This document shows, piece after piece, positions 11,127-27,834 of a stretch of 64,000 nt of DNA; the first letter of the stretch is position 1, and the number at the start of each line of letters is the position of its first letter. The notes beneath the pieces are model-generated. The model was not told the origin of the DNA. It made no database searches and saw only the letters and a program-made list of their open reading frames with translations. The DNA is taken from NCBI GenBank assembly GCA_964220215.1, contig CAXPTH010000021.1, positions 926 to 64,925 on the forward strand, written 5' to 3'. A program made the translations under genes and the position numbers. The stretch is from Alteromonas sp. (lineage in GTDB: Bacteria > Margulisbacteria > Marinamargulisbacteria > UBA6595).

Positions 11127-11196
11127 CGCCTAAATTTTGCCCAGTCTATTGCTGAATAAACTCGACAAACGCACCCGTATCCAGTATTCTAGATAG

Positions 11197-12966
11197 ATGA
11201 CGAATGAACAACGCAGGCTAGCCGGTCACCTAAGCAGCCAAACGATCGGGGAAACCGTAACCCTCAACGGTTGGGTGGACGTGGTTCGCGACCATGGCCA
11301 ATTGCTTTTCATTCACTTGCGGGATCACACCGGTATCGTGCAAGTGGTTGTGGATCAGGACAATCCTCACTACGCCCAAAGCAAACAACTGCGTAGCGAG
11401 TACGTGATTGGGGTCACGGGCCCTGTGGTTGAACGCGAGGCATCGGCTAAAAACCCCGACATGCCCACCGGCGAGATTGAAGTGCATATTACCAGCCTCA
11501 TCGTTTTCAATACCGCTGAAACACCCCCGTTTGTTGTGAGTGAGAAAGACACCCACAGTGTCGATGAAGATATTCGATTGCAACACCGCTATCTGGATCT
11601 GCGCCGGCCCACCATGCAACAGCGGTTAATCCAACGGCACCGCATCGTCAAAACCATCCGCGATTACTTTGATCGGCATGACTTTATCGAAGTTGAAACC
11701 CCCATGCTCACCCGAAGCACGCCCGAAGGCGCTCGTGACTACTTGGTGCCCAGCCGCGTGCACGATGGCAGTTTCTATGCCCTGCCACAATCCCCCCAAC
11801 TGTTTAAACAATTGCTCATGATGAGTGGCTTGGGCCGCTACATGCAGATTGCACGGTGTTTCCGCGATGAGGACCTCCGCCCCAATCGACAACCCGAATT
11901 TACCCAGTTGGACTTTGAGGCCAGCTTCATTGATGAGCACTTTATTATGGATTTAATCAATCCCCTGATGCAGACATTATTTGCCGAAGCGAATCTCCCT
12001 TTTACACAACCCGTTCGCACCCTAACCTATGCCGATGCCATAGCCCGTTACGGCAGTGATAAGCCCGATCTGCGATTTGGTCTTGAGTTTGTTGACTTAT
12101 CCCCAGTATTTGGCGAGACAGCCTACAAAATTTTTCGAAGCATTTTAGACAACGGGGGCTGCATCAAAGGCATTCGACTCCCCAAGCAGTCCCCCAATTT
12201 AAGCAAAAGCCGACTCCAAGACCATTATGCCAAAACAGTCGTCCCGCAGTTGGGGGGTAAAGGGATGACGTGGTTGCGGGTTGTGGACAACCAACTCGAA
12301 TCCAGCGTGCTGCAATTCTTTTCAGATACAGAACAAGCCAACCTCAAAACGGCCATGGCTGCTGAATCCGATGATGTGATCATGATTATTGCCGATACCG
12401 ACCCACAGGTAGTGCACGATGTTTTGGGCGACCTACGCCTGCATGTCGCTCGGGATTTAGATTTAATTGATAGCCAAAAAGTCATCGGTTGCTGGATTAC
12501 CGAATTTCCACTATTTGAAAAACGCAACGGGCAACTTAATTTGTTGCATCACCCATTCACACAACCCACCACCGATATTACCCAACTCACAACGGAAGCT
12601 GAGTACCTAAGCATCACCGCTCGGGCCTACGATCTGGTCATCAATGGGGAGGAAATTGGGGGGGGTAGCATTCGGATTCACGATGCCACCATTCAAAACA
12701 AAGTCTTTGATATTGCCGGACTGAGCGATGCTGACATCCACGAAAAATTTGGGTTTTTTATCCAGGCGTTACAATACGGAACCCCACCGCATGGGGGCAT
12801 GGCTGTCGGATTGGACCGGCTCGTTGCCATGTTGTGCCAAACCGAGTCCATCCGCGACGTGATCGCATTTCCTAAAAATCGGATGGCCGTATGCCCGCTC
12901 ACCAAAGCACCGGCATCGGTCCACGCCGATCAACTCAACGAACTAAACATACAACTACGAGGTTAA
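11197..12966 (+). CDS. aspS: Aspartate--tRNA ligase
   Basis: 589 aa. N-terminal OB-fold anticodon-binding domain. Class II motifs (FIEVETPML, FRDEDLRPNRQPEFTQLD, GGMAVGLDRL). Confidence 0.95.
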   Translation: MTNEQRRLAGHLSSQTIGETVTLNGWVDVVRDHGQLLFIHLRDHTGIVQVVVDQDNPHYAQSKQLRSEYVIGVTGPVVEREASAKNPDMPTGEIEVHITSLIVFNTAETPPFVVSEKDTHSVDEDIRLQHRYLDLRRPTMQQRLIQRHRIVKTIRDYFDRHDFIEVETPMLTRSTPEGARDYLVPSRVHDGSFYALPQSPQLFKQLLMMSGLGRYMQIARCFRDEDLRPNRQPEFTQLDFEASFIDEHFIMDLINPLMQTLFAEANLPFTQPVRTLTYADAIARYGSDKPDLRFGLEFVDLSPVFGETAYKIFRSILDNGGCIKGIRLPKQSPNLSKSRLQDHYAKTVVPQLGGKGMTWLRVVDNQLESSVLQFFSDTEQANLKTAMAAESDDVIMIIADTDPQVVHDVLGDLRLHVARDLDLIDSQKVIGCWITEFPLFEKRNGQLNLLHHPFTQPTTDITQLTTEAEYLSITARAYDLVINGEEIGGGSIRIHDATIQNKVFDIAGLSDADIHEKFGFFIQALQYGTPPHGGMAVGLDRLVAMLCQTESIRDVIAFPKNRMAVCPLTKAPASVHADQLNELNIQLRG

Positions 12967-12970
12967 CATT

Positions 12971-14575
12971 ATGAGTCAAACTATTTTATTTTCTGAATTG
13001 GGATTATCCCAAGAAACACTGGCTGCCATCACAGCCAAAGGGTTTCAACACCCCACACCCGTTCAAGCTGAAACCATTCCGCGCATTCTGAACGGCACCA
13101 ATCATATTATTGCTCAAGCCCAAACAGGGACCGGAAAAACCGCCGCATTTGGCTTGCCCATTCTGGATACACTGGATTTTAGTGCCAAGCATACCCAAGC
13201 GTTAATTTTAGTGCCCACTCGGGAATTGGCCGGCCAAGTGTGTGCCGAATTGGTCTCCCTGTCGGGGCAAAACAAAAACACCATTATTCCCGTGTATGGC
13301 GGACAACCCATGGACACCCAATGCCGAGCCCTCAAGCGTGGGGCCTGCATCGTTGTGGGGACACCCGGCCGGGTCATTGACCATCTAAAACGCAAAACCT
13401 TGCGCGTGGATCAAGCGCGCTACTTGATTTTGGATGAAGCCGATGAAATGCTGAACATGGGCTTTATCGAAGACATTGAATCGGTTATGGAATACACCCC
13501 TAAAGATACCCGAATTTTACTCTTTTCTGCCACCATGCCGGATCGCATCCGAACCTTGGCCGCCAACTATATCCCCGATTACGAACACATCAAAATCAAG
13601 TCCAAAGCCGTCACTACCCCCCTCACCGAGCAACTGTACTTTGAGGTTAAAAATCGGGATAAATTCGAAGCGTTGTGCCGCATTATTGACCATCAAGTGG
13701 GGTTTTATGGCATGATCTTTTGCCGAACCAAGCGCGATGTCGATGAGATCAACAACCAACTGATTCAACGCGGCTATACCAGCGAGCCGATTCACGGCGA
13801 TATCAACCAAACCCAACGGGAACGCACGCTCAGCCGGTTCCGAAAAAAAACGATTCATATTTTAGTCGCAACCGATGTGGCCGCTCGTGGGATTGATGTA
13901 GACAACCTCACCCACGTTATCAATTATGCCCTACCCCAAGACCCAGAAAGCTACGTGCACCGGATTGGCCGAACCGGCCGGGCTGGCCAAAGCGGTACCG
14001 CTATTACCCTCATGACTAGCAACGAATACCGCCAACTGGTATTCATTCAAAAACTGGCCAAAACAACAATCGAACGCCGTCAATTACCGGCCGTGTCTGA
14101 AATTGTTGAAAACAAGAAAAAAAGCATTACCGATCGATTGGAATCTCAACGCGATACCCGTGTGGGCAACCAATACCGCCAATGGGCCGAAGAACTACTC
14201 ACCGATGCCGACCCAACCACCACGGTTGCCACCATTTTACAACACTGTTTTGACAGCGTACTTAGTACCGATCAATATGCCGATATTGACACGTCCGTTA
14301 AATCCGGAAAAAAAGGCCGAGACGGGGGCATGGACAGCCACGGAAAAGCCCGCTTGTTTGTGGCCAAAGGCAAACGCGACAAAATAACACCCAAAGGCAT
14401 TATTGCATTAATCAAAACCCATGTTAAAATTAAAGACTCGGATATCCGACAAATTCAAATCATGGAAAACTTTTCATTTGTAAATTTACCGTTTGATCAC
14501 GCCGAAACACTCGTGCGCAATCTAAAAAACAGCAACGAACGGCCCATCATTACCTACGCAAAAAAGAAGCGGTGA
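12971..14575 (+). CDS. DEAD-box ATP-dependent RNA helicase with DbpA-type C-terminal RNA-binding domain
   Basis: Motifs Q (GFQHPTPVQ), AQTGTGKT, DEAD, SAT and HRIGRTGRAG, followed by a C-terminal DbpA-like RBD. Confidence 0.9.
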   Translation: MSQTILFSELGLSQETLAAITAKGFQHPTPVQAETIPRILNGTNHIIAQAQTGTGKTAAFGLPILDTLDFSAKHTQALILVPTRELAGQVCAELVSLSGQNKNTIIPVYGGQPMDTQCRALKRGACIVVGTPGRVIDHLKRKTLRVDQARYLILDEADEMLNMGFIEDIESVMEYTPKDTRILLFSATMPDRIRTLAANYIPDYEHIKIKSKAVTTPLTEQLYFEVKNRDKFEALCRIIDHQVGFYGMIFCRTKRDVDEINNQLIQRGYTSEPIHGDINQTQRERTLSRFRKKTIHILVATDVAARGIDVDNLTHVINYALPQDPESYVHRIGRTGRAGQSGTAITLMTSNEYRQLVFIQKLAKTTIERRQLPAVSEIVENKKKSITDRLESQRDTRVGNQYRQWAEELLTDADPTTTVATILQHCFDSVLSTDQYADIDTSVKSGKKGRDGGMDSHGKARLFVAKGKRDKITPKGIIALIKTHVKIKDSDIRQIQIMENFSFVNLPFDHAETLVRNLKNSNERPIITYAKKKR

Positions 14576-17500
14576 CCCGCGTTATCGCGTTTTTTATTCA
14601 AAACCCCATTTGGGTCCGAGCCATTATGATCGGGCTGGTGGGGTTTGGTTTGGTATCCCTCAATAGCCTCAACAGTTCTTTTTTTGCACCCATTGACCCC
14701 AAAACCATCACCGTTTCAGCCACCTACCCCGGGGCATCCCCCGAAGAAATCGAACGGGGGATTATTTTAAAAATTGAATCCAATTTAACCAACCTGGACG
14801 GCATCGCCCGGATGACGTCCCAATCGTACGAAAACCGCGGAAGCCTAACCCTTGAACTCAAAAAAACAGCCAACGGCGCAACGGTCCTGGAAGACGTTAA
14901 ACAAGCCATTGACCGCATCAGCACCTTCCCCAGCGGCATGGAACCCCCCATCATTAGCAAAACCAAAATTATTGACCGGGCCATTCGCATTGTACTCACG
15001 GGGGATACCGATCTCAAAACCCTCAAAACAACCGCCAAAAAAATTGAAAACGACCTGAGAGCCTCCGGTAAAATCAGCATCATTGAGCTCAGCGGCTTTC
15101 CCAATGAAGAAATCGACGTCCAAGTCACCGAAGCCAATCTACTGGCCCACAACCTAACCATTCGTGCCGTGGGCCAAGCCATTCGCAATGCCAACATCGA
15201 AATCACCGGCGGGCAAATTGAGCAACGCAACGAAACCTTTCTCATCCGAAGCAATACCAAACGCTACACCGCTGCCGAATTGGGAAGTATTATTGTCAAA
15301 ACCAACCCCGATGGCAGTGTCGTGCGATTAACCGATATCGCCACCGTCACCGACGCCTGGGCCAATACCCCTTACGCCGTGTTTTACAACGGCCAGCCAG
15401 CCGTGACCATTGCCATTAATAAAACACCCAATGAAGATATTTTGGACATTGTTCGCACTGTTCGCCAGTATGCAACCACCTTCAATCAAACCCACACCGA
15501 TATCCAAGCCTACATCAGCGATGACCGCAGCATTAGCCTGCGCCAACGCATCGCCTTACTCTCTAAAAACGGCCTCATGGGCTTTGGCCTGGTCTTGGGT
15601 GTCCTGGGCTTGTTTTTAAACCTGTCCATCGCCTTTTGGGTCGCACTCAGCATCCCCTTATGCTTTATGGGCCTGTTTATTGTGGGCGGTTTTATCGACT
15701 TAACCATCAACGTCATTTCCCTATTTGGCATGATTGTGGTGGTGGGGATTTTGGTCGATGATGGCATTGTTATTGCCGAAAATATTTACCAAAAAATTGA
15801 ATCCGGCATGAACCGGCTCGACGCCGCCATCACCGGAACCGTGGAAGTCCTCCCGTCGGTTACCGCTTCCATCCTGACCACCATGATTGCGTTTATGCCC
15901 TTTTTTTTCATCGATGGCCGCATTTCGGATATTCTCAACGATATGGCCGTGGTGGTTATTATTACACTCGCTATTTCGTGGCTGGAGGGCGCCCTGATTT
16001 TACCGGCCCATATTGCCCATAGCACCCCCCGCCCCATTGGGGCACTCAAACACCGGTTTAATACCTGGGTCGATACCCTGCGCTACACACATTATGCACG
16101 CGCGCTTACACTGGTGTGCCGCCATCGCATCCTAACGGTCCTGGTACCCGTCGGGTTGCTCATGCTGACCCTGACAGCTGTTAAAAGTGGTCGGATTCCA
16201 TTTGCATTTTTCCCCTTTGTCGATTCCGATGCCATTACCGTCCAATTGGCCTTGCCCCCCGGTTCCAGTGAAACACGCACCCTCTATTGGCTGGATACCA
16301 TTGAGGCCAAGGCTATCGAAGTTAACCAAGCCTTTCAAGCCAAACGAGCCGATCAAAAACCCATTATTTTAGCCATTACCAAACAACTCACCGCCGATCA
16401 CAAAGGCCAAGTCTTCCTCCAATTACTCGATGGCGAAACCCGAAATTTAGAAAGCTTTCGCATTACCGAAGCCTTACGCACCGCCGTGGGCACCATCCCC
16501 GAGGCCCAGACCCTTGAATTTGGCTCTCGATCCTTTTTTGGCAAACCCGTTGAAATCTCACTCCTGGGAGACAATCCCAACACGCTCGCTACCGCCAAAG
16601 CCCAGCTCAAAGCCAAACTCATGGCCCACCCCAAACTCAAAGACGTGGTGGAGGCCGATGCCCAAGGCCTGCGTGAAATTCACATTGACCTAAAACCCAA
16701 CGCCTACCGATTGGGCTTCACCAGCCAACAAATTTTGCAACAAATCCGCGACAATATTTTTGGATATGAAGCCCAGCGCTTGCAACGTGGCGACGATGAT
16801 GTGAAAATTCGGGTCCGCTACACCGAGTCCGAACGGCAATCCATTGCCAACCTGGAACGCATGCAAATTTATACCGATTCGGGCCAGCGCTACCCCCTCA
16901 GCAGCTTGGCAGACTTCCGAATCCAACACGGGGTTTTGGCAATCAACCACTTAGATGGGTTCCGAGAAGCCACCGTGTCCGCCGCCTTGGCCAACACCCA
17001 AGCCCCACTCCCCCCCATTTTAGCCGATATCCAAACCACCATCGTGGCCCCCTTATTAACCCAATACCCCACCCTTACCGCCACCTTTGGGGGACAAAAA
17101 CGCGAAACCGATAAAACCACCCAATCGGCTAAAATTGTCTTGCTGGTACTAATTTCAGCCATGTTTATTGTCATTAGCGTGGGGTTGCACTCGTTTTTAC
17201 AAGCCAGCCTGGTCCTTCTGCTTGTCCCGTTCAGCTTCATTGGCGTCGCTTGGGGGCACGCCATTCACGGCATTAGCATTAATATCTTATCCACCTACGG
17301 GATCATCGCCCTCACCGGCATCACCGTTAATGATGCCATTGTGTTGATTAATCGCTTTAACCGCTGCATTCGTGACGGCGATCCGCTCAACACAGCCATC
17401 ATCACCGCGGCAACCACCCGATTCCGAGCCATTATTTTAACCTCCTTAACGACCATTTGCGGCCTGGGCCCCTTGATTTTTGAAACCAGCCGCCAAGCGC

Positions 17501-17718
17501 AGTTTCTCATCCCCATGGCCATTTCAGTTGCCTATGGGCTTATCATCACCACCGTGAGCATTTTGGTCATCGCCCCGCCATTGTTGCTGGGCCTCAATGC
17601 GTGCCGCCGCGGACTTCATTGGCTCAAAACCGGCCATTGGGTCACCCCCGAACAGGTGGAGCCAGCGTACCAGCACGCCCACGTGTATCGGTCATTAAAA
17701 AAAGGAGACACCGTATGA
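14572..17718 (+). CDS. RND efflux transporter permease (AcrB/HAE family)
   Basis: 1048 aa. 12-TM RND topology with two large periplasmic loops. GTG start overlaps the helicase stop (GTGA). Confidence 0.9.
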   Translation: MTRVIAFFIQNPIWVRAIMIGLVGFGLVSLNSLNSSFFAPIDPKTITVSATYPGASPEEIERGIILKIESNLTNLDGIARMTSQSYENRGSLTLELKKTANGATVLEDVKQAIDRISTFPSGMEPPIISKTKIIDRAIRIVLTGDTDLKTLKTTAKKIENDLRASGKISIIELSGFPNEEIDVQVTEANLLAHNLTIRAVGQAIRNANIEITGGQIEQRNETFLIRSNTKRYTAAELGSIIVKTNPDGSVVRLTDIATVTDAWANTPYAVFYNGQPAVTIAINKTPNEDILDIVRTVRQYATTFNQTHTDIQAYISDDRSISLRQRIALLSKNGLMGFGLVLGVLGLFLNLSIAFWVALSIPLCFMGLFIVGGFIDLTINVISLFGMIVVVGILVDDGIVIAENIYQKIESGMNRLDAAITGTVEVLPSVTASILTTMIAFMPFFFIDGRISDILNDMAVVVIITLAISWLEGALILPAHIAHSTPRPIGALKHRFNTWVDTLRYTHYARALTLVCRHRILTVLVPVGLLMLTLTAVKSGRIPFAFFPFVDSDAITVQLALPPGSSETRTLYWLDTIEAKAIEVNQAFQAKRADQKPIILAITKQLTADHKGQVFLQLLDGETRNLESFRITEALRTAVGTIPEAQTLEFGSRSFFGKPVEISLLGDNPNTLATAKAQLKAKLMAHPKLKDVVEADAQGLREIHIDLKPNAYRLGFTSQQILQQIRDNIFGYEAQRLQRGDDDVKIRVRYTESERQSIANLERMQIYTDSGQRYPLSSLADFRIQHGVLAINHLDGFREATVSAALANTQAPLPPILADIQTTIVAPLLTQYPTLTATFGGQKRETDKTTQSAKIVLLVLISAMFIVISVGLHSFLQASLVLLLVPFSFIGVAWGHAIHGISINILSTYGIIALTGITVNDAIVLINRFNRCIRDGDPLNTAIITAATTRFRAIILTSLTTICGLGPLIFETSRQAQFLIPMAISVAYGLIITTVSILVIAPPLLLGLNACRRGLHWLKTGHWVTPEQVEPAYQHAHVYRSLKKGDTV

Positions 17719-18833
17719 TTAAATCTGTAACCTGGGTTCGCCTTGGCCTTGGCCTTGGCCTTATACTCGCCATTGCCATACTCAACCACACCCTAGGACA
17801 ACCCGATAGCGACCCGGCACAATCCCCCCCACCGGCCCGCATCCCCATCGTGGACACCCAACCCGTCCGCAACCAAACCCACCGCGGCAGCCTCGTTGTC
17901 TACGGCCAAATTAAAGCCGTGGATACCGTGAACTGGGTAGCGGCTGTCCCTGGCGTTATTCAACCCACTCGCGTGCAGTTTCAAGCGGGGATTCCATTCA
18001 AAAAAGGCGATGTTCTCATTGCCATTGATAACCGCGAGCAACGCTATCAGCTCAATGCGGCCACCAGCGCATTCATGACCCGCATTATTCAACTCATCGC
18101 CGAGTTAGACATCGACTACCCCGACCAAGCCCCCCCATGGCGACAATTTTTAAGCCAAATCCAACTGGACCACCCCTTGCCCGAATTGCCCAACAGCGAT
18201 ACCCGCATCCGCTATCGCTTGGCCGCCCTAGGCATTTTAAGCGATTATTATGCCATCCAAAAGCAGGCCGTTGTGTTGGAAAAATACACCTTAATCGCCC
18301 CATTTGATGGCGCCGTGAAAACCAGTGCCGTTCGCCCCAACACCTACGTATCCCCCGGGCAGCCCTTGGGAACCATCATGGACCTCAGCCAGCTGCACAT
18401 CCACAGTGCCGTTCGTATGGAACAGGCGCAATTTCTAGATCCTGACAGCCCCGTTCAGGTGGCTGCCACAGCACTGAACCAAACCTGGACCGGCACCCTC
18501 ACCGCCATCAACGCCAACATCGACCCCAGCACCCAAAGTGTCCCCATTACGGTGGCCTTACCGCCTAAAACCAACGCTCGCGATGGCACCCACGTCTCCA
18601 TGACCACCACCACCCGACCCATCCCCAACGTGATGCGCATTGATCAACAGCTCCTCGTCAACAATACCGCCGTTTATGGCGTGGATGCCGCCACATTGGT
18701 CGCCTATCCCGTGACCGTCGTCTTGCGCGAAACCGATACCCTCTTGGTGCGGGGCCTCCCGGATAATCGGGTTATTTTGTCAAAGCCGGTACCCGGTGCC
18801 TACGTGGGCATGCCCGTACAACCCACACCATGA
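17715..18833 (+). CDS. Efflux RND periplasmic adaptor (membrane fusion protein)
   Basis: ATGA overlap with the RND stop. N-terminal anchor, a lipoyl/barrel-sandwich region (GVIQPTRVQFQAGIPFKKGDVLIAID), then a coiled-coil hairpin and beta-barrel region. Confidence 0.8.
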   Translation: MIKSVTWVRLGLGLGLILAIAILNHTLGQPDSDPAQSPPPARIPIVDTQPVRNQTHRGSLVVYGQIKAVDTVNWVAAVPGVIQPTRVQFQAGIPFKKGDVLIAIDNREQRYQLNAATSAFMTRIIQLIAELDIDYPDQAPPWRQFLSQIQLDHPLPELPNSDTRIRYRLAALGILSDYYAIQKQAVVLEKYTLIAPFDGAVKTSAVRPNTYVSPGQPLGTIMDLSQLHIHSAVRMEQAQFLDPDSPVQVAATALNQTWTGTLTAINANIDPSTQSVPITVALPPKTNARDGTHVSMTTTTRPIPNVMRIDQQLLVNNTAVYGVDAATLVAYPVTVVLRETDTLLVRGLPDNRVILSKPVPGAYVGMPVQPTP

Positions 18834-20026
18834 GCCGCTGGGTGCTACTGATTTTACTGTGGGTGGGGCTGTGTACCCACACGCAGGCAGCCCTAACCTT
18901 AGATGCAGCGCTTCAACACACCTTGGCCAACAATTACGCCATCCAGATTGCCCATACCCAAGCGGCCCGTGCCCAAACCCAAACTGGCCTGAGCCAAGCC
19001 AATCTCTTGCCCACCATTACCGTTCGCCAAACCAAGACCGATCAACCCACCAGAACCCCGGGCATCAGCACTCAAACCAACCAAACTACTCAAACCACCG
19101 GGACCATTCAGCAAACCCTCTTTGCGGGACTCACCGGCATTACCCAGTGGCGCAAAAACAAATCGTTGGCCGATCTGACTCAACTGCAAGCCGAACAGGT
19201 CTTGGAAACCACCCTGTATACCACCACGTTGGCGTTTTATGACCTGGTGGAGGCCCAGTATCGGCTGGCCGTTGCTGAATCGGTTGTTGCCCTATCGGAA
19301 GACCGGCTCAACCGTGTCCGGATTCGGGCGGACCTGGGCGGGGAGTCCCAGTTGGCGGTACTCAATGCGACTGTGGATTTGAATACCGACAAAACAGAAT
19401 ACCAGAACGCCTTAGCGGCACGCAAAGCCGCCGAAATCCAGCTCAACCAACAGCTCAACCAAGCCTTAGACACCCCGCTCACGGCGGAATTACCGCCGCC
19501 CCTATCCGTGCCCACTTCCGGCATTCGTCAGAATCGGGCGATTCGCATTGCTGAGCAGTCGCATCGGTTATCGCAGTTGGATCAGCAGTTGGTGCTGGGT
19601 GCGCTATTCCCGAGTGTCACGGTTCGGCATACGATGCAAGACGCCCGGGAACCGATCAATACCCTCGAAGCTCAGTGGTCATTGACTGGATGGCGCCATA
19701 AACAGGCGTGGGATGCTGCGACGCTGACCCATGCCGAAACGAATTTAAACAGAGCCCGTGTCCGGCAATTGGTGCAGGCCCAATGGGCCCAAGCTTTGGT
19801 GGATTATGACCGCACGCGGACGTTGCAGGCGCATGAGTTGGAGACAGTTCGGGTGGCGAAGCGGAATTTTGAGCGCACGCAGGCGTTGTTTCATGCGGGG
19901 CAAGTGTCTGCGTTGGTGTTTCGGGATGCCCAGTTAAAATACACCCAAAGCCAGTACCGCGCCCACCAGGCTCAGATTCAGTTGGGCAAAGCCATTGCCC
20001 GAGTGCATCAACTAGCGGGGGGTTGA
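18830..20026 (+). CDS. TolC-like outer membrane efflux protein (OEP family)
   Basis: ATGA overlap with the MFP gene. Signal peptide, then an OEP repeat beginning LTLDAALQHTLANNYAIQIA. Two internal OEP repeats. Confidence 0.8.
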   Translation: MSRWVLLILLWVGLCTHTQAALTLDAALQHTLANNYAIQIAHTQAARAQTQTGLSQANLLPTITVRQTKTDQPTRTPGISTQTNQTTQTTGTIQQTLFAGLTGITQWRKNKSLADLTQLQAEQVLETTLYTTTLAFYDLVEAQYRLAVAESVVALSEDRLNRVRIRADLGGESQLAVLNATVDLNTDKTEYQNALAARKAAEIQLNQQLNQALDTPLTAELPPPLSVPTSGIRQNRAIRIAEQSHRLSQLDQQLVLGALFPSVTVRHTMQDAREPINTLEAQWSLTGWRHKQAWDAATLTHAETNLNRARVRQLVQAQWAQALVDYDRTRTLQAHELETVRVAKRNFERTQALFHAGQVSALVFRDAQLKYTQSQYRAHQAQIQLGKAIARVHQLAGG

Positions 20027-23000
20027 GGTTGTTGTTTGGATTTGGGGTTGGTTTTGGGATCGGCTTTGGGTTTGGTAGCGGCTGATTTGGTAGCGGCTTT
20101 GGCTTTGGGATCGGCTTTGGCTTTGGCTTTGGGATCGGCTTTGGCGGCAGCTTCGGCGGCTTTGGCTTCTTTGCGGGCTTTGGAATCGGCGGCGGCGGCG
20201 GCGGTAGCGGCGGCGTTTTTGGCTGATTGTTTTGCGGCTTTTAATATTACTTCGGCGTTTTCGACTTTGGTTTGGGCAAAACTGATTTTTCTACTTAACT
20301 CATTATTGCGGTCTTTGATTTGTCGGATGCATTCTATAATTTCTTCATTATTCTCAAAACCTTGGGCAGCTCTATTTGCCTCAATCAATAAATCATCGAC
20401 ACGTTGCCTCTCTTGTTTAACTTTTTCCATATATTCTTGTGTTTCTGCTAATTGACTTGCCGCTTTATCAACTTTCGTTTTAGAATTTTCTTCTAATTGT
20501 GGGGGGGTGCCTATGTCACTATTTTTCAATTTTTCTTTTGCATTTTGAACAGCCTGCAAAGCTTCTTTTAACTTCGATAGTTTCTCTTCAATGTTTATAA
20601 CGACTTGATTGGCAGCTTCAGCGGCTTTATTGGCAGCTTCAGCGGCTTTATTGGCATCGGCAGCGACTTGATTGGCAGTTTCAGCGGCTTTCTTGGCAAT
20701 TAATTTAGTTTCTTCTCCTAAGTATGTTTTATTGTCGGCAGCTTTAGCGGCTGTCTCGGCAGCTTCAGTAACTTTTTCCATGGTAGCTTTGGCAGCTTCA
20801 GCGGCTTGTTTGGCATCGGCAGCGGCTATCTTGACAATTTGGACAGCATCTTCAAGTTTATTAACATTGGGAGCAGTTTTAGCCCTGTTCTTGGCATTAG
20901 TGGCAGCGGTCTGGGCATTTGCAGCAAAATCCTTGGCAGTGGCAGCAAAAGCTTTGACTTCTTTTAATAAATTTTCAACATCTTTATTCGGGTTTAACCG
21001 CATTTCTTCCGATTTATGACATTCCTTCAAATGCTTAAGTTGATCAATACCATAATCAGATTTGTCTCCTTTATCCATGGTTGCTTCCAGAGCACTCAAG
21101 TCTACAACCATTTCCTGGATTATTGCTAAAAGTTGTTTGTATTTTTCCCGTCTTATATCTCCTCCCTGACCACGTTCTAATATATTTTCTTTCAGATTAT
21201 TTTGAAACCATGTTGAAAATTCTACATTTATTTTTGGTGAGAGTGTACCTTCAATTTTTAAACGAATACCATCAAGATAGTTTCTATTAGTATCTTCGCT
21301 ATTATTTAAAATTTTAGGCAATAAGTCGTTCTCCTTATATGTTTCTCCGTTTGTTCCATAATACTCAGCTACTAATTTCTTAATACTATTAAAATCTTTT
21401 TGATTAGTCAAAGTAAGAAAAGCCTTTTGTTTAGCCGCAAGCAGGTCCTTTTGATCACCTATATCAAGACTTTCTTGAGGCTTTAGGGCATCTATTAAGG
21501 CCTTTATCTTTTCTTTTAATTTTTCAGGGTAACTTTTATCCAATTCTGTTTCTTCTAGCACTTGAACAACAGCTTTAAATTTACTTTCATGTTTTTTATA
21601 TTTGCCACATGGGAAAATGGTTTTCATCTCTTTTGTAAAATCTTCTGCATTAATTCGCTCTAGCGCAAGATCTTGCAATGTTGAAATAAAATCAACTGCA
21701 TCCTTGTCAGTAGCGTCGTTTTTATCAACACTTAAAAGACTGTTAACAATATTCATTTTAACCTCTGCCCGTTTTGATATAACCATCATGTTGAGCATAT
21801 CTTTAGCATAGGGATCTGTATTCAAATCTTTGTTTAAGTGCTCTATTATTCTTTCTCTGTTTTGTTTACCGTAGTATGTGATTTGTCCAAGTGATTCTTT
21901 TTCAGATCTGCGATACCGCCCAATAAATTGAACCACATTCATAGATGCCCCTGATTCCATTAAATTGTCCGATGCAATATGAAACTCTACAGCTAGATTA
22001 TCACCGTCTGCAGGTTGTTTAGAAGAACTAGAAAACTCATCAAAATCATGGCCATAACAGTTATCCCCAAAGTAGACAAAATCAATTTTATTTTTTGCTA
22101 CTGTTTGTTTTTTCAAAAACTCCACTGCTTTGTCTTTGCTAGTAAATGTTTGTGTCACTACATCGGTTGTAATTTCATACTCTCTTGACTTAACAATAAC
22201 ATACTCTCTTGACTTAACAAAAACCCGTGTTCTATTAGTATTTTGAGAAAATGAAGTTTGTTCATCACTAAGCCAAAAGTACCGTTGTTTCTCAGGATCT
22301 TCACCCAAAACAGAATCAATAGTTTCTTGTGTTTGTGGTGTATTCAAATTCTTATTAAGATCAATCGCTATCAACTGGTTAATTTGTGAGACTGCCGCAT
22401 CTCTATGTTGACCAAGGGTTGCATCAGTTGCATCATCAAATGTCAATTCTTTTAAACGAGACTTTATATTCTCGAGTTCATCTTTATTCAGTTTTAATTC
22501 TGTTAGTTCTTTTAATGTGGCCAACCAATTCGCTAGATAAGCGGTTGTCCCTGGTGATGTAGCAATATACTGATGGACGCCAATATTCAAACTCATATTA
22601 TTTAAAAATGCTTGGCATATGTATACTAAGTCATTTGAGTCTCCAATTGATGCTTTAAATATTTTCTTTTTATCATCTGGGATTATATTACACAAGCCTT
22701 GTATAAAGTCTTGTTTTTCTTTTTGTTCTGAGTCTGAAAATGTATGCCTCTCATCAAAAATAAATGCTATAGTATCAGTTTGTTTTGCAGAATCGTCAGA
22801 GGCTTGTTCGGGACTTTGTATTCTGCTTAATTCTGTCTCAACAGCTTCCAGAAATTTTGTAGTTTTTTGTTCCATTTCATTTTCAAAACCAGGAATTGGT
22901 GAAAATAAATGAACATTTGGTTTTTTCATTGATTGCATCATCGTCATCAACGCCGTTTTACCGGCTCCAGTCCCCGCTGACCATCGGTTATAAAGGCCTT

Positions 23001-26000
23001 TTGTTGGTTTCTTCGAAATAAAATATTGGACCACCTGCTCCTGAGTTGGAATTTTTTTAGATGCGTTAACGAGTTCTGCAAAACATTGGTTTATAGATTC
23101 ATTTGCTAGATCAGCATCTGTCCATGGAATTCCAGTCTTACCAAGACTATCTTGTACATCTTGTGTTGTATATGACTTCAAAAAATCAGTCATACTATAC
23201 TTTCTTCCTTTTAATGTGGGGTCATTATAATACCTCAAACTTCCTGCATGTTTTTTTAGTGTCACCATTGCGATCACCGTTTCTATATTTGGGAAGGGGG
23301 GGGGAGATCCATCTGCTGTTGTATCTGCTGTTGTATTTGATGAGTTAGCTTTTTGATAAAGATCAGCGAATTTGCCTTTACTTTTGGTTAAACCTGTTTG
23401 TGATAATTTTTCTAAAACAGCTTGTATTTGTTCAATATATGTGGGTGGATTTGTTCCTGAGCTCCCTGCTGACGTAGCCGTTGTACCCTTCCTTTCAAAT
23501 TTATCCTTCAGAAAAGCCAAACGAATCATTTCTTCATTTTTATTTAATTGATTTTCTGTTTCTGTTTCTTTAGACCATTCAGCAAGTGTTTCCATATTGT
23601 CACTGTATTTTTGGATGGTTTGGATGGTTGTGCTGTGGTTTGAATCACTTCTTTGAACGTCTAATCCTTTGAGATATTCTAGATAGTCTTGAACCGCTTG
23701 CTGTTTTTGGGATTTGATATCAGTTTCTAACTCTCCCAAAGCTGTTGCTAAATCTTCCACAGCTTTTGTAGCCTCTTTTTTGGCTGTTTGGGCTGTTTGG
23801 GCGTCTGGAACACCATCACCCTCGGCACCGAGCACTGCGCTGTATTCCGTATCGGCTGCCTCTAGACTACTCTGAAGTTCTTCATGCTTTTGGTCTGCTT
23901 TTAAATCGTTTAACTGCTCCACTATCGCCTGAAGGGCTGCAATTTTGGCAGCTGGGGCTGCGCCTGAAGCTGTGGATGGTATCGCTTTTTTTGTGTCTTC
24001 TATCTTGACTGTTGCTGCCTTGGCTTGGGTGGTAATGGATTCATACGCTGCTGTCGCTGCTTCCGCTGCCAACCGCTCTTCTTCTACTCTTATAACTGCT
24101 TCTAACTCCCCCAAAGCTGACACAGCGGTTGTGGCGTTTTGTTTGGCTGTTATAGCCTTTGTTTGGGCTTCTGTAGCCTTTTTTTGGGCTTCTGGAACAC
24201 CCTCAGCACCGAGCACGCCGCTTTTTGTTGCTTCTTTATCGACTTGATCTAGACGCTCTTTAAGTGTTTGATAACTTTTCGTTTGGTATTCTTTTAATTC
24301 TTTTAACTGCTCCACTCTCTCCTGAAGGGCTTCAATATTGCCCTCTGAAGCTGGGTCTTCGCCTGAAGCTGTGGCTGGTATCGCTTCTTCTAATTTTGTT
24401 TTTATCTCGGTTGTTGCTTCGTTGGCTTTGGTGGTAATTTCTCCATACGCTTTTTTAGCCGCTTCTGCTGCTTCCGCTGCCAACCGCTCTTCTTCCGCTT
24501 TTCGGGCCGCTTCTGCTGCTTCCGCTGCCACCCGCCTTTCTTCCGCTTTTTTCGCTGCTTCCGCTGACTCTTTTCGGGCCGCTGCCTCTGCTTTTTCTAA
24601 TTCTCCCACAGCTTTTCCTAACGCTTCCACAGCTACTTTAGCTTCTTCTATCTTGCCTGTTGCTGCCTTGGCTTCGGTGGTAATGTCTCCATACTCTGCT
24701 ATCGCTGCGGCGGCTTTTTTCGCCGCTTCCGCTTCCGCTTTTCGGGCCGCTTCCGCTGCTTCCGCTGCCAACCGCTCTTCTTCCGCTTTTCGGGCCGCTT
24801 CCTCCGCTTTTTTCGATTCGAGGGATTGGATAGATTCTTCTAAAGTTCCCAAAGCTTTTTTTAACGCTTCCACAGCTGTTTCTAAAGCTTTCACAGCTCC
24901 TTCGGCTCCTTTTTTGGCTTCTACACCATCCGCACCGAGCACTGCGCTGTATTCCGTATCGGCTGTTTTTAGACGATCTGCAAGTTGTTTATAAAGTTCC
25001 GGTTGTTCTGCTTGTAATGGTTTTAACTGCTCCACTATCGACTGAAGGGCTGCAATCTTGGCAGCTGTGTCTTCGCCTGAAGCTGAGGCTGTTTTCGCTG
25101 CTTCTACTTCTCTTTTCGCTGCTTCTGCTTTTTGTATCTCGGCTGTTGCTTCGTTGGTAATTAGTACATACTCTGCTATCGCTACTGCGGCTTGGATGGC
25201 TTTGATGGCTTCTTCGGCTGTTGTTTGGATGGCTTCGTTGGATTTTTCTTTGATGTCTTTGATGGCTTTGATGGATGCTTCGGCTGTTGTTTGGATGTCT
25301 TGGATGTCTTTTTCGGCTGTTGTTGGGATGGGTTTGATGTCTTTTTCGGCTTTTTCTTGGATGGCTTGGATGGCTTTTTCTTTGATGGCTTTGATGGCTT
25401 CTTCTTGGATGGCTTGGATGGCTTGTGCTTTGATGTCTTCATTGGCTTGGATGTCTTGGATGGCTTGGATGGCTTCGTCTTTGATGAAGCGGATGTCTTT
25501 GATGAAGAGGATGTCTTGGATGTCTTTTTCGGCTTTTTCTTTGATGGCTTTTTCTTTGATGGATTTGATGCCTTCTTTGAATGTGTCTGGGATGTCTTTG
25601 ATGGCTTTTTCTTTGATGGCTTTGATGGCTTTTTCTTGGATTTTTTGGATTTTTTGGATGGCTGCTTCCACTCTCACCTTACGAACTTTATACGCCGCTT
25701 GTATCTTTTTTGTGGCGGCTTCTTTTTTCGCCGCTTCCGCTGCGGCTTTTTCCGCTGCCACCCGCTTTTCTTCCGCTTTTTGGGCCTTTTTGCCTTCTTT
25801 CGTTTGTGTGTCTAAGAGGACTTGTTGAGCGTCTTCTTCCGCTAAGCGGAGGATGTCTTCCAGTATGTTCGCCACTGATTCAGAATTTTTGGGGTCATTG
25901 AGTGCTTTTTTTAGTGCTTCCGCTGATTCACTAAGACTTTTACTACTACTACCACCAGCAGCATCCTTGGGAGTACCACCAGTGCCATCGGCTACACTTA

Positions 26001-26895
26001 ATTTTAACTTTTCCACAGCTTCTTTGGCTGCTTCTTGGGCTTCTTGGGCTTCTTTAGCTTCAGCAATATCCAGACTGTCATCTTTGGACAACTCATTGTA
26101 TTCTTCATCGACTTCCTTTAGACGATTTTCAAGACTTTTGCGGTCGTTTCTTAACTTACTTTTTAAAGCTTCTAAATTTTCCCGAAATTTTTCAAGATCT
26201 AACTCTGATTTGTTTTCTATATGATCTTGTACTGTTTTTAAGTGTGTTTTACACTCATAAACTACCTCTCCAAACTTTCGTTCGGCCTCTAGTTTAATTA
26301 ATTCATAGTCTTTTTTTATTTTTTGGAGTTTGAGCGCCTTAATTTTATTTTCGAGTTCCTTAATTTGAACTTCGGTATTGTCACTTTTAGTTTGATGTTG
26401 AGCCCTGAGTTCTTGAAGTTCTTCTGTTAATTCGCTAATCTTATCTTGGTTTGATTGAATTTCGTTTGCGAGTTCGTTTGTGAGTTCTGATGCTTTAGAT
26501 TGATTAAAGTGATTGGCAAATTTTTCAGCTTCATAGTCAAAATATGCACCTATCCCATAACCCAAAACGCCAGCACCGAAGCCAGTACCCGCACCCGCAG
26601 TAAGAGAAATAAGGAAAACCCATCCTACAGGACCAGTTGCCAAAGCAAGAGCTACGGCAATACCTAAAGCGGTTCCCCCCAGTCCCCCCCCAGCTCCATA
26701 TTGTTGACGATAATTTGATGACCTTGATGTTGGTGAAAAACTAACTGGTGATTGTGTAATTGACGGTTTGATTTTTGAAATTGGATCTGGAACTATCCCT
26801 TGAAATGGAGCTGAAGCTTTATTTTCCCTTGGATTTATTAGACCTGGAACTATCTTTGGATCTGAACCTGAACCTGGAGTTACACCGGATGACAC
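20008..26895 (-). CDS. Giant hypothetical protein (2,295 aa): membrane hairpin, coiled-coil repeat scaffold, embedded P-loop/DExH-like NTPase, K/A/P basic tail
   Basis: Uninterrupted 6,888-nt ORF. GTG start follows a GGAGG Shine-Dalgarno site. Walker A GTGAGKT (res 1308-1314), IAFIFDERH (D1381-H1384), FIGRYRR (res 1657-1663). No family recognised. Confidence 0.8.
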   Translation of the reverse strand: MSSGVTPGSGSDPKIVPGLINPRENKASAPFQGIVPDPISKIKPSITQSPVSFSPTSRSSNYRQQYGAGGGLGGTALGIAVALALATGPVGWVFLISLTAGAGTGFGAGVLGYGIGAYFDYEAEKFANHFNQSKASELTNELANEIQSNQDKISELTEELQELRAQHQTKSDNTEVQIKELENKIKALKLQKIKKDYELIKLEAERKFGEVVYECKTHLKTVQDHIENKSELDLEKFRENLEALKSKLRNDRKSLENRLKEVDEEYNELSKDDSLDIAEAKEAQEAQEAAKEAVEKLKLSVADGTGGTPKDAAGGSSSKSLSESAEALKKALNDPKNSESVANILEDILRLAEEDAQQVLLDTQTKEGKKAQKAEEKRVAAEKAAAEAAKKEAATKKIQAAYKVRKVRVEAAIQKIQKIQEKAIKAIKEKAIKDIPDTFKEGIKSIKEKAIKEKAEKDIQDILFIKDIRFIKDEAIQAIQDIQANEDIKAQAIQAIQEEAIKAIKEKAIQAIQEKAEKDIKPIPTTAEKDIQDIQTTAEASIKAIKDIKEKSNEAIQTTAEEAIKAIQAAVAIAEYVLITNEATAEIQKAEAAKREVEAAKTASASGEDTAAKIAALQSIVEQLKPLQAEQPELYKQLADRLKTADTEYSAVLGADGVEAKKGAEGAVKALETAVEALKKALGTLEESIQSLESKKAEEAARKAEEERLAAEAAEAARKAEAEAAKKAAAAIAEYGDITTEAKAATGKIEEAKVAVEALGKAVGELEKAEAAARKESAEAAKKAEERRVAAEAAEAARKAEEERLAAEAAEAAKKAYGEITTKANEATTEIKTKLEEAIPATASGEDPASEGNIEALQERVEQLKELKEYQTKSYQTLKERLDQVDKEATKSGVLGAEGVPEAQKKATEAQTKAITAKQNATTAVSALGELEAVIRVEEERLAAEAATAAYESITTQAKAATVKIEDTKKAIPSTASGAAPAAKIAALQAIVEQLNDLKADQKHEELQSSLEAADTEYSAVLGAEGDGVPDAQTAQTAKKEATKAVEDLATALGELETDIKSQKQQAVQDYLEYLKGLDVQRSDSNHSTTIQTIQKYSDNMETLAEWSKETETENQLNKNEEMIRLAFLKDKFERKGTTATSAGSSGTNPPTYIEQIQAVLEKLSQTGLTKSKGKFADLYQKANSSNTTADTTADGSPPPFPNIETVIAMVTLKKHAGSLRYYNDPTLKGRKYSMTDFLKSYTTQDVQDSLGKTGIPWTDADLANESINQCFAELVNASKKIPTQEQVVQYFISKKPTKGLYNRWSAGTGAGKTALMTMMQSMKKPNVHLFSPIPGFENEMEQKTTKFLEAVETELSRIQSPEQASDDSAKQTDTIAFIFDERHTFSDSEQKEKQDFIQGLCNIIPDDKKKIFKASIGDSNDLVYICQAFLNNMSLNIGVHQYIATSPGTTAYLANWLATLKELTELKLNKDELENIKSRLKELTFDDATDATLGQHRDAAVSQINQLIAIDLNKNLNTPQTQETIDSVLGEDPEKQRYFWLSDEQTSFSQNTNRTRVFVKSREYVIVKSREYEITTDVVTQTFTSKDKAVEFLKKQTVAKNKIDFVYFGDNCYGHDFDEFSSSSKQPADGDNLAVEFHIASDNLMESGASMNVVQFIGRYRRSEKESLGQITYYGKQNRERIIEHLNKDLNTDPYAKDMLNMMVISKRAEVKMNIVNSLLSVDKNDATDKDAVDFISTLQDLALERINAEDFTKEMKTIFPCGKYKKHESKFKAVVQVLEETELDKSYPEKLKEKIKALIDALKPQESLDIGDQKDLLAAKQKAFLTLTNQKDFNSIKKLVAEYYGTNGETYKENDLLPKILNNSEDTNRNYLDGIRLKIEGTLSPKINVEFSTWFQNNLKENILERGQGGDIRREKYKQLLAIIQEMVVDLSALEATMDKGDKSDYGIDQLKHLKECHKSEEMRLNPNKDVENLLKEVKAFAATAKDFAANAQTAATNAKNRAKTAPNVNKLEDAVQIVKIAAADAKQAAEAAKATMEKVTEAAETAAKAADNKTYLGEETKLIAKKAAETANQVAADANKAAEAANKAAEAANQVVINIEEKLSKLKEALQAVQNAKEKLKNSDIGTPPQLEENSKTKVDKAASQLAETQEYMEKVKQERQRVDDLLIEANRAAQGFENNEEIIECIRQIKDRNNELSRKISFAQTKVENAEVILKAAKQSAKNAAATAAAAADSKARKEAKAAEAAAKADPKAKAKADPKAKAATKSAATKPKADPKTNPKSKQQPQPPAS

Positions 26896-27076
26896 TACTA
26901 CCTCCCCACTATTTTTAGACTGTATTTTCTAATAAAACTACAAGCCAGTATACAACAAAAAAATTGAAATGTCAATGTTTTAATAAAAAACTGACCGGCT
27001 AGTTTAACTACTATCCATTGCTGATACATACCAACAGAATGCCCCCTCGATGAGAACTTTAAACCTGTCCGTTGCA

Positions 27077-27250
27077 CTTAAAAGTCCCCTTTAGGGGATT
27101 TAGGGGCCTAGGGATTTAGGGGCTTAGAAAGTCCCCTTTAGGGGATTTAGGGGCTTAGAAAGTCCCCTTTAGGGGATTTAGGGGCCTGGGGGTAGTGGCT
27201 TGGGGATTTAGGGACTTGGGAGTAGTGGCATAGGAATTTAGGGGCCTAGG
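27077..27250. repeat. G-rich tandem repeat array (~31-bp period) with embedded TCCCCTTTAGGGGA hairpins
   Basis: Two perfect 31-bp copies of TTAGAAAGTCCCCTTTAGGGGATTTAGGGGC at 27124-27154 and 27155-27185, plus a near copy at 27077-27107. Degenerate ~30-bp units continue to ~27245. Six GG(G/A)ATTTAGGG(G/A) cores. Confidence 0.85.
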
Positions 27251-27261
27251 AGTTTAATCAA

Positions 27262-27834
27262 TTACCAGATCCCGCCAGCGCCATACGGCGTGCCAGAACT
27301 TGTGTTGGCATCCATCGAACGAACATCCCGTGGTGTGGACCCATAATGCCTATTATTGAAGCTATTTACGGTGCTCAGATTGTCTAAATTGTCTAAATTA
27401 TCTAAATCTGTTAAACCCAAGTACGCATCCACAATCCCTGAAAATACCGTATAGTCATTGGAAAACGTTAGCGCAATGCCCCCGAAGTCCGTATCCTGGA
27501 CAATCGCTACCGATGGGGCTACCGCTTCCACATAATCCAACGGAAATTGAGGATCCAACGAAACCCGAAACACCACCGCATACGCCGCCGGTTGCAACGG
27601 CCCCAAATCAAACACCCCCGACGGCTGGGTAATTACAGCATCAGACACCACCCGATCGGTCTGAATATTAATCACATACACCGCAATCGGTCGTACCGAA
27701 TTTTGAATAACGCCCCGCATGGATGCCCCCACAATCGGGGTTGACAGTGACACACAAATCACACAAAATAGTACAACGATTATGCGCAACCTGTTTCCCA
27801 ATCGCTTGTCTACTTTGCCTACGTTTAATTGCAT
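27262..27834 (-). CDS. Hypothetical secreted protein (possible carboxypeptidase-regulatory-like beta-sandwich) with DNL repeat
   Basis: 190-aa ORF with a signal-like N-terminus (RLRIIVVLFCVICVSLSTPIVGA). (DNL)x3 is encoded by a 9-bp tandem repeat at 27379-27414. The fold call is weak. Confidence 0.5.
   Translation of the reverse strand: MQLNVGKVDKRLGNRLRIIVVLFCVICVSLSTPIVGASMRGVIQNSVRPIAVYVINIQTDRVVSDAVITQPSGVFDLGPLQPAAYAVVFRVSLDPQFPLDYVEAVAPSVAIVQDTDFGGIALTFSNDYTVFSGIVDAYLGLTDLDNLDNLDNLSTVNSFNNRHYGSTPRDVRSMDANTSSGTPYGAGGIW

Follow-up and report, generated by a model that had tools for sequence, protein, structure and literature searches.

An orphan 2,295-codon gene exchanged as an allele cassette in Marinamargulisbacteria, with a putative membrane-tethered NTPase as its product

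What is the product of an open reading frame (ORF) that runs for 6,888 nt, resembles no named protein family and sits among housekeeping and envelope genes? The question is raised by a 64-kb window (throughout, the whole stretch of 64,000 nucleotides that was analysed, positions 926 to 64,925 of contig CAXPTH010000021.1, assembly GCA_964220215.1) from the Marinamargulisbacteria, an uncultured sister lineage of Cyanobacteria. The giant ORF lies at 20008-26895 on the minus strand and comprises 2,295 codons plus a stop, beginning with GTG. It is a real gene, its product is an orphan with no detectable relatives outside its own small clade, and it is exchanged as an allele cassette between conserved housekeeping genes, the allele types recombining within and between species. 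As judged from its sequence, the protein is new at the level of sequence family and architecture; its function we infer. It is probably membrane-anchored, and we tentatively read it as a cytoplasmic NTPase fibre tethered to the membrane and diversified by genetic conflict. The initial annotation of this DNA, made from the sequence alone, had described the architecture; the evolutionary mode, with allele cassettes, foreign-looking codon usage and a ratio of non-synonymous to synonymous differences per site (pN/pS) at or above 1, was not part of it.

The single uninterrupted minus-strand frame and its GTG start after a GGAGG were reproduced, both in coordinates and in the ribosome-binding site, which reads GGAGG at 26905-26901 and is followed by the 5-nt spacer TAGTA, the GTG starting at the sixth base after it. 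The expression signals ahead of the gene are as follows.

26947-26975, minus strand: sigma-70-like promoter, TTGACA-17-TATACT, an 11/12 match and the top promoter-like site in the region
26901-26905, minus strand: ribosome-binding site GGAGG, present also in the allele L010, ahead of its ATG

In L010 (Ga0671602_0638), a divergent allele, the promoter appears as TTGAAA-17-TATACT, the GGAGG is retained and an ATG start stands at the same place, the N-terminus reading 'MASGV' against 'MSSGV' in the window allele. The core of the gene has 34% GC and another frame of the same strand contains 80 stops in 929 codons, and the giant ORF is therefore not a chance frame. Random placement of the substitutions that separate two alleles produced a mean of 19 stop codons and a minimum of 7 in 2,000 trials, against an observed count of 0, and the protein-guided alignments of the alleles contain in-frame gaps only, none of which splits a codon. 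The window is identical to contig JBERCX010000021.1 of the metagenome-assembled genome (MAG) GCA_041228815.1, where the identical protein was called, and the whole 2,295-codon ORF is found again, 99.65% identical, in the independent MAG GCA_041240485.1. The latter copy differs from that of the window by two single-nucleotide polymorphisms, both non-synonymous, and by two in-frame 21-nt indels inside the gene; outside it, near-identical assemblies differ at only two positions in the 5.8 kb compared. Partial divergent alleles were recovered from other metagenomes, and some short-read contigs break within the 3' repeat zone, at 20764, 20287 and 20074. An assembly artefact is unlikely, and the worry that the long frame might stem from collapsed repeats is answered by the independent assembly, which gives the same frame. 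As had been described, the ORF shares its final 19 nt with the convergent OEP/TolC-like gene (18830-20026); the overlap is allele-specific, the ORF of the allele L009 (Ga0255759_10001120) stopping 5 nt short of tolC.

Searches with the whole protein and with nine fragments of it gave no significant match in Pfam, NCBIfam, PADLOC or PHROGs. An exhaustive HMMER scan with residues 1067-1983 against 1.84 billion representatives recovered, besides the protein itself, only three fragments from close relatives and a repetitive adhesin, P0005, which we judged spurious; no homologue was found in any other lineage, host-associated ones included. According to word-index searches and cluster look-ups, some nine sequences, none of them from outside the clade, make up the whole family among ~15 billion proteins; viral contigs, phage genomes and plasmids yielded no relatives, including by tblastn against phages and plasmids. 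The view that no named family fits has held in all these collections and among PDB sequences, none of the searches yielding full-length homology to an S-layer, adhesin or SMC family, and we found no prior description of the giant protein in the literature. Structure prediction with AlphaFold2 failed (predicted local distance difference test, pLDDT, 36 from the single sequence and 42 from a 5-sequence alignment), so that the Foldseek output, with TM-scores of at most 0.15, is uninformative.

From the N- to the C-terminus, the protein can be divided into the following parts, the core motifs being listed under the core.

26701-26895, minus strand: P/S/G-rich leader, residues 1-65 (S 20%, P 15%), probably disordered and of the same character in the relative P0008
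26539-26697, minus strand: Gly-rich bilobed hydrophobic stretch, residues 67-119 (Kyte-Doolittle), with two lobes around a TGP turn
25996-26535, minus strand: coiled coil 1, rich in E/K/L, residues 121-300 (heptad periodicity z=4.6 against shuffles)
25180-25695, minus strand: AIK/AIQ micro-repeats, residues 401-572 (I 20%, K 18%, A 17%)
23698-25179, minus strand: A/E/K-rich modules, residues 573-1066 (heptad z=8.7), with ERLAAEAAEA sub-repeats
21706-23325, minus strand: AT-rich globular core, residues 1191-1730 (GC content at third codon positions, GC3, 0.25), with blocks conserved across 3-4 alleles
22954-22977, minus strand: Walker A motif AGTGAGKT, residues 1307-1314, invariant in 4 alleles and within the Pfam DEAD alignment
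22744-22773, minus strand: Walker B / DExH-like motif TIAFIFDERH, residues 1375-1384, invariant in 4 alleles
21907-21930, minus strand: QFIGRYRR, residues 1656-1663, which fits the Q-x-x-G-R-x-x-R of motif VI of superfamily 2 (SF2) helicases and is invariant in 3 alleles
20926-21705, minus strand: helical C-terminal part of the core, residues 1731-1990, holding the 1777-1799 recombination patch and the invariant LLAIIQEMVVDLSALE
20206-20925, minus strand: coiled coil 2, rich in A/K/E, residues 1991-2230 (heptad z=4.7), swapped wholesale between allele types
20011-20205, minus strand: K/A/P polycationic tail, residues 2231-2295 (A 35%, K 23%, P 12%; net charge +10)

Most of the multi-part architecture that had been proposed at first reading is borne out by this division: the P/S-rich leader of ~65 aa, the Gly-rich double hydrophobic hairpin (one stretch with two lobes), both coiled coils, the AIK/AIQ micro-repeats, which are genuine tandem DNA repeats with periods of 9 to 66 nt, the AT-rich core with its Walker A and DExH-like motifs, to which QFIGRYRR can be added, and the basic tail. 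The A/E/K modules exist as well, although not as four equal units; three are complete (about 130-160 aa) and one is truncated, with 42-61% protein identity to the first module and 72-74% identity between the DNA repeats. The IQ-like motif that had been noted among the micro-repeats (IQAAYKVRKVR, residues 398-408) found no support: it is a single loose match within a K/R-rich helix, without a Pfam match (PF00612) at E<=1 in the whole-protein scan, and in the fragment scan at E<=10 it fell across fragment boundaries. Several parts recur in relatives, the modules in P0004 and P0008 and the tail in L009 and L008, and P0008 is 47% identical to the window allele over residues 1-300, a span that contains coiled coil 1.

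Residues 67-119 form the sole hydrophobic segment of the whole protein in the Kyte-Doolittle scan, and their hydrophobic character is kept in P0008, there with an NP turn. We read them as two helices around the TGP turn, a hairpin that gives a weak glycine-zipper match (E=0.08). No signal-peptide-like hydrophobic segment was seen in residues 1-65 by the hydropathy scan, and two arginines, R58 and R63, lie on the N-terminal side of the hydrophobic stretch. The combination of hairpin, absent signal peptide, N-side arginines and ATP-binding motifs leads us to place both termini, provisionally, in the cytoplasm.

The core carries the clearest hints of an activity. Residues 1191-1990 are AT-rich and compositionally ordinary, and the sole consistent weak signal in the family searches is Pfam DEAD (PF00270), the top match for residues 1280-1460 (E=8e-4, 19.6 bits against a cut-off of 26) and among the top weak matches in L009 (E=0.021). 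The alignment begins at PTQEQ, within the Q-motif-like IPTQEQ (1282-1287) that precedes Walker A, and extends through Walker A and the following strand. Weak matches to AFG1/ZapE (E = 0.005-0.12) were seen as well. Like SF2 helicases (PF00270 plus PF00271), the core has in collinear order a PT..Q element, an AxTGxGKT Walker A, the next strand and an hhhhDExH motif (FIFDERH), then an ATSPG element at the place of motif III and QFIGRYRR at that of motif VI; motif I (AxxGxGKT) and motif II (DExD/H) are thus both present, as AGTGAGKT and FIFDERH, in all 4 alleles. It is unlike them in that its score stays under the gathering cut-off, in that Helicase_C (PF00271) finds no match at E<=10 on residues 1540-1730 and no PDB sequence matches, in the 68 residues between Walker A and Walker B, which is short for SF2, in the separation of its two halves by ~270 residues with a helical insertion, and in its position within ~1,500 residues of coiled coil plus a membrane hairpin. 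Because the motifs are there and the profiles fail, we do not file the protein as an SF2 member. Comparison with the DEAD-box helicase encoded in the same window adds little likeness, hhalign of the two families giving a probability of 0.4% and BLASTP aligning Walker A alone. From these motifs we infer that the core hydrolyses NTP, and it may be SF2-like; the polycationic tail, by its composition, would bind nucleic acid. The core also contains a perfect-frame 24-nt tandem duplication at 22177-22224 (VFVKSREY / VIVKSREY), which the type-2 allele (see below) lacks, having a shorter and different sequence at that position.

The evolutionary behaviour of the gene is more distinctive than its domain content. 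The only GTDB species representative with a relative is the MAG 'bacterium UBP8_UBA6595' (UBA6595), a genome placed in Marinamargulisbacteria by Matheus Carnevali et al. (PMC6349859). Three further fragments of the family come from surface water of Tara Oceans station 067; two belong to the 0.22-0.45 um fraction and the third to that of 0.45-0.8 um, sizes that suggest small, free-living cells. Comparison of these and other relatives with the window defines a variable segment and, at its upstream edge, a repeat array.

20115-27233, strand not applicable: variable cassette, approximate (blastn break-points), spanning gene, promoter and some of the upstream repeats
27081-27256, strand not applicable: 31-nt tandem repeats, three or more copies of GGGATTTAGGGGCTTAGAAAGTCCCCTTTAG, at the upstream cassette edge

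Outside the cassette relatives are 93-98% identical to the window, and inside it 74-80% or unalignable. L009 is 98.3% identical in the flank (10740-20115) and 80.4% in the core, with no DNA alignment over the second coiled coil (20115-21007); L010 is 93-96% identical in the flanks and 74% in the 5' part of the gene, again at the DNA level. Three allele types can be told apart, type 1 in the window and L002, type 2 in L009, L011, L013 and L014, and type 3 in UBA6595 and the Tara fragments. The type-2 alleles, although from four metagenomes, are 99.5-100% identical to one another, and L009 and L013 differ by nine bases, all non-synonymous and all within residues 1777-1799 (7 codons). Since 6/7 of these codons match the type-3 allele, we regard the segment as a recombination patch from a type-3-like allele. 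Against UBA6595, synonymous divergence (dS) in the giant gene is 0.03-0.6, compared with 1.4-1.6 in the flanking AcrB and DEAD genes and 0.39 in HlyD; relative to the AcrB and DEAD flanks it is low, and the gene was therefore exchanged between lineages after their split. Its GC3 of 0.31 (0.25 in the core) contrasts with 0.51-0.66 in its neighbours, and across all alleles the range is 0.25-0.32 against 0.40-0.66 in flanking genes.

Length varies too. The coiled coil after the core is ~310 aa long in type 1 but ~250 aa in type 2, and it contains 21-nt tandem repeats at 20604-20698, each a heptad of the 'AAEAANK' type. Against L002, indels lie at 20608-20628 and 20735, one 21-nt deletion and one 21-nt insertion between two MAGs, and two independent short-read assemblies, L003 and L004, both end exactly at 20764, which suggests a length polymorphism in the population. 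The 31-nt array stands between a small upstream ORF and the giant-gene promoter; each unit includes TCCCCTAAAGGGGA, a hairpin of terminator type with a T-rich stretch after it. The motif is absent from the rest of the window, and only one copy is present in L010. On the other side of the cassette, the tolC-like gene (18830-20026) has a dS of 0.18 against L009, compared with 0.01-0.03 for acrB, the DEAD-box gene and aspS further off, as would be expected if divergent flanking DNA came in with the cassette. Two relatives end abnormally. In L010 (1482-2846) the giant-gene homologue ends after 454 codons at a junction near 2819, corresponding to 29074 in the window, where an ACAGCC microhomology joins it to the middle of the SLH-protein gene, oriented as an inversion between the two genes would leave it; either the inversion is real and both genes are disrupted, or the contig is a chimeric assembly. 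In L012 (ERZ2944636 NODE_21525, coverage about 1), bases 61-793 match residues 1132-1395, after which the ORF ends and the remaining contig is unrelated, and it is probably a low-coverage chimera.

Substitutions in the giant gene are spread evenly over the three codon positions, in a way that its neighbours do not share, with differences of 312:241:275 against L009 and 175:160:171 against UBA6595, compared with 201:107:533 in AcrB and 49:21:235 in the DEAD-box gene. In the core, pN/pS is 1.2-1.5 against L009 and likewise 1.2-1.5 against UBA6595, over residues 1-330 it is 1.3-1.6 against L010, and in the best-conserved windows it reaches 2.2-2.7 (binomial p = 0.001-0.015), as opposed to 0.17-0.25 in flanking genes. 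A three-way alignment of residues 1600-1990 has three different residues at 54/390 codons, and synonymous changes at just 22/227 of the invariant residues. Constraint is nevertheless evident, in that the frame stays open and both the NTPase motifs and the hydrophobic scaffold are kept: 18% of the hydrophobic positions are variable against 56% of the polar ones (p = 4e-11), and 3-4 alleles that agree elsewhere at 64-80% of positions show no change in Walker A, FIFDERH or QFIGRYRR. The polar surface residues, for their part, change at or above the neutral rate. Changes that involve adenine predominate (72%) and are spread over >3 kb, an excess that results from swaps among K, E, Q, N, D and T codons. 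The variation of dS along the gene fits a recombination mosaic, and a locally raised mutation rate in the variable segments would also fit; possibly, the substitution rate there is raised by a local mechanism as an aid to cassette diversity.

Cassette exchange together with change at polar sites on a preserved scaffold is what we read as the signature of genetic conflict, and we assign a probability of roughly 40% to the view that the product is a membrane-tethered cytoplasmic NTPase fibre under conflict-driven diversification. The disordered leader would be followed by a two-helix hairpin in the inner membrane with both ends in the cytoplasm, and then by ~900 residues of coiled-coil spacer modules. 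The core itself would be a globular P-loop NTPase of the additional-strand, catalytic-glutamate (ASCE) type, with the first RecA domain of SF2 helicases as its nearest, sub-threshold, likeness; behind it, a second coiled coil would lead to the K/A/P-rich tail, which might bind a polyanion such as nucleic acid. Discrete cassettes would recombine, with amino-acid change gathering on polar surface positions, and the role would most likely be that of a membrane-proximal, ATP-driven sensor or effector against invading DNA. The partner in the conflict would most plausibly be phages, met at the inner face of the membrane. A specific role in phage defence is nonetheless doubtful, and it is similarly questionable whether the gene is, as one might further propose, a single-polypeptide conflict system of a previously unknown kind that guards the inner membrane face against phage or foreign DNA with recombining cassettes under diversifying selection.

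Several observations weigh against this reading. PADLOC-DB 2.0 returned 0 defence families at E<=1, and the annotated ORFs of the window include neither a mobile-element gene nor another recognised defence gene. On the side of the NTPase, the DEAD score is sub-threshold, Helicase_C is not matched, the spacing of the Walker motifs is short, PDB sequences gave no match either with the single protein or with two family profiles at E<=10, and the predicted structures are poor. On the side of selection, the conserved blocks are conserved at synonymous sites as well and dS varies ~20-fold along the gene; with dS so low in these blocks, part of the conservation may reflect recent recombination and not constraint. 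Apparent dS could be lowered by the strong AT bias, a loosely constrained 'spacer' protein would likewise be expected to have a pN/pS near 1, and the comparisons involve 3-4 alleles per region, all from short-read metagenomes.

The protein might, then, be a structural spacer or tether without any conflict, cytoskeleton-like or linking nucleoid to membrane, for which length, helicity and charge count but the exact sequence is of no importance, and that drifts under AT-biased mutation while ordinary recombination makes the types. We consider this unlikely, if far from fanciful. Coiled coil makes up more than half of the protein, pN/pS is near 1 and not far above it across most of the gene, low GC3 fits relaxed codon selection, a membrane anchor and a basic tail would suit a tether, and sequence divergence at constant length is known from coiled-coil spacers (PMC5082667). 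Yet length is not strictly kept here, given the difference of some 60 residues (~310 against ~250 aa) in the coil after the core; pN/pS exceeds 1 (p = 0.001-0.015) in the globular core too and not in the coils alone; 14% of codons are three-state although synonymous divergence is very low; the discrete types are 20-60% different between strains that are ~99% identical elsewhere; and the gene passed between species more recently than its flanks diverged. Artefact or decay, be it a collapse of repeats, a chimera of the assembly or an incipient pseudogene, could account for the contig breaks at the 3' end, for the abnormal ends of L010 and L012 and for a substitution pattern that looks neutral. 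It is extremely improbable: two MAG assemblies agree across the whole ORF, no allele obtained has an internal stop (0 against ~19 expected), the early-ending L010 and L012 being possible chimeras, the hydrophobic positions are strongly conserved, and internal repeats that are 70-74% identical are too divergent for assembly collapse.

Two further explanations place the protein outside the cytoplasm. An envelope or cell-surface fibre or antigen, with the helical part beyond the cytoplasmic membrane and diversified through recognition by phages or grazers, would suit a hypervariable locus of deviant GC3 that lies between TolC/HlyD/AcrB on one side and an SLH protein and TonB-dependent receptor on the other; the surface positions are hypervariable, and the A/E/K modules may recall the periplasm-spanning helices of TolA-like proteins. 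It is quite unlikely all the same, for there is no signal peptide or single signal-anchor, and the 53-residue hairpin returns the chain to the side from which it started; Pfam scans show no beta-rich adhesin, RTX or SLH modules, the neighbouring pump is of the RND type and not an ABC type I exporter, and outside the cell there would be no use for invariant ATP-binding motifs. The initial annotation had leaned towards a secreted, membrane-inserting effector of a host-associated or predatory bacterium. This reading draws on the resemblance of the N-terminus to an Inc-type bilobed hydrophobic domain; such an effector would have a disordered N-terminal secretion signal, insert into a host or prey membrane by the bilobed domain and extend its coiled coils into the host cytosol. 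The N-terminal layout does seem to match the formal description of chlamydial Inc proteins, Marinamargulisbacteria include an intracellular animal symbiont (PMC6784892), and diversifying selection is typical of effectors. We could not sustain the proposal and regard it as very unlikely: the annotated genes of the 64-kb window include no secretion-system gene, relatives were sampled in plankton fractions of 0.22-0.45 and 0.45-0.8 um, no homologue turned up in the other lineages searched, host-associated ones included, and 2,295 aa would be very large for type III or IV export. A hairpin without a signal peptide, combined with conserved ATP-binding motifs, seems to fit a cytoplasmic, membrane-tethered protein at least as well.

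If the product is such a tethered NTPase, it can be set beside several known systems. FtsK/SpoIIIE and type IV coupling proteins share with it, in architecture only, an N-terminal anchor, a long low-complexity linker, a cytoplasmic P-loop motor with an hhhhDE motif and a basic region that possibly binds DNA. The linker here is coiled coil and not PQ-rich, a second coiled coil and a tail follow the motor, and those motors are conserved whereas the giant gene is hypervariable. Membership of FtsK/SpoIIIE/HerA was rejected, as the profiles for FtsK_SpoIIIE, HerA and TraG found no match at E<=10 in Pfam and NCBIfam.

Membrane-associated anti-phage systems that combine long coiled coils with helicase/nuclease partners, such as Zorya (ZorA/ZorD), and single-gene defence ATPases are alike in joining a membrane anchor, a long cytoplasmic coil and an SF2-like ATPase, here predicted in one polypeptide, and the locus resembles a variable island in its deviant composition and horizontal exchange; there is, however, no PADLOC match, no MotAB-like stator and no recognisable nuclease or partner gene, and the defence role is in this case a prediction. 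By analogy, the protein would at most work like a membrane-anchored P-loop motor of the FtsK/coupling-protein type or like a coil-mounted defence ATPase. Inc proteins likewise combine a disordered N-terminus, a bilobed hydrophobic domain of 50-60 residues and coiled coils, and the formal feature of a bilobed hydrophobic domain of ~40-60 residues near the N-terminus is found in residues 67-119 and also in P0008; in contrast to typical Inc proteins, the giant protein is 10-20 times larger, carries an NTPase core and has no sequence similarity to them, the window shows no genes for type III secretion, and its source organism seems to live in the plankton.

Hypervariable loci for surface antigens or phage receptors are described in marine bacteria, for example as SAR11 hypervariable regions (bioRxiv 10.64898/2026.03.20.713316). 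The locus resembles those of the SAR11 type in having a strain-specific cassette between conserved genes, deviant GC and breaks in metagenome assemblies, and it differs from them in that a single gene in a fixed place varies as divergent homologous alleles, instead of gene content varying, and in that its product looks cytoplasmic. Other candidates were tried and rejected. SMC/Rad50/MukB proteins do not fit, the motifs being 68 residues apart in mid-protein and not at opposite ends, with no profile matches; nor does an RTX protein, giant adhesin or S-layer protein, given that Pfam finds no such domains, that the N-terminus lacks a signal-like segment and that the neighbouring pump is RND-type. 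A dynamin- or mitofusin-type GTPase was dismissed as well, an NKID element being present but no DxxG following the Walker B strand. The gene does not look like the target of a diversity-generating retroelement: its changes extend over >3 kb, the window has no second near-identical copy, and no reverse transcriptase was found among its annotated ORFs.

At 6.9 kb, the gene takes up on the order of 0.3-1% of a genome of 0.5-2.0 Mb, the range given for Marinamargulisbacteria, one of which is an intracellular placozoan symbiont (PMC6784892), and so represents a large investment. An orphan gene that is open in all alleles seen, exchanged and fast-changing is a probable player in an arms race, be it with phages, hosts or competitors. 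If the conflict reading is true, it would constitute a new architecture for immunity or interaction, a single chain that unites an anchor, a long coiled coil, an NTPase and a polycationic tail, and would offer a tractable marker for strain-level dynamics in ocean metagenomes. Should it instead be a drifting spacer, it would provide a clear natural example of selection on length and fold rather than on sequence.

The surroundings of the gene are a housekeeping and envelope region. On one side lie AspRS, the DEAD-box helicase, AcrB, HlyD and TolC; on the other, a small secreted ORF and a PBP-like gene are followed by the SLH protein, ArgRS, TilS, a TonB-dependent receptor, ExbBD and TonB. The TolC-side neighbours are the same in UBA6595 and in Ga0255759_10001120. 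The RND pump operon (14572-20026) consists of AcrB, a HlyD-type adaptor and OEP/TolC with overlapping starts and stops, and the adaptor, which carries no precomputed Pfam family in the contig tables, matches HlyD_D23 and HlyD_3 in a direct Pfam scan. A Fic/DOC-family gene at 58046-58651, ~31 kb from the giant gene and among housekeeping genes, contains the only toxin- or effector-like domain seen in the window. The 909-aa ORF at 45129-47858 has as its sole Pfam match phosphoenolpyruvate carboxylase (PEPC), weakly and in one region (E=5e-6), and its product may be a very divergent PEPC or something else. Rfam finds nothing in the window, and HIP1 cyanobacterial repeats occur in 0 copies. Directly upstream of the giant gene and on the same strand, the small ORF at 27376-27834 (minus; 152 aa as called in the MAG) has no family match; it encodes an N-terminal hydrophobic signal-like segment and a 'DNL' triplet repeat, and it belongs to the conserved flank, being 96% identical in L010.

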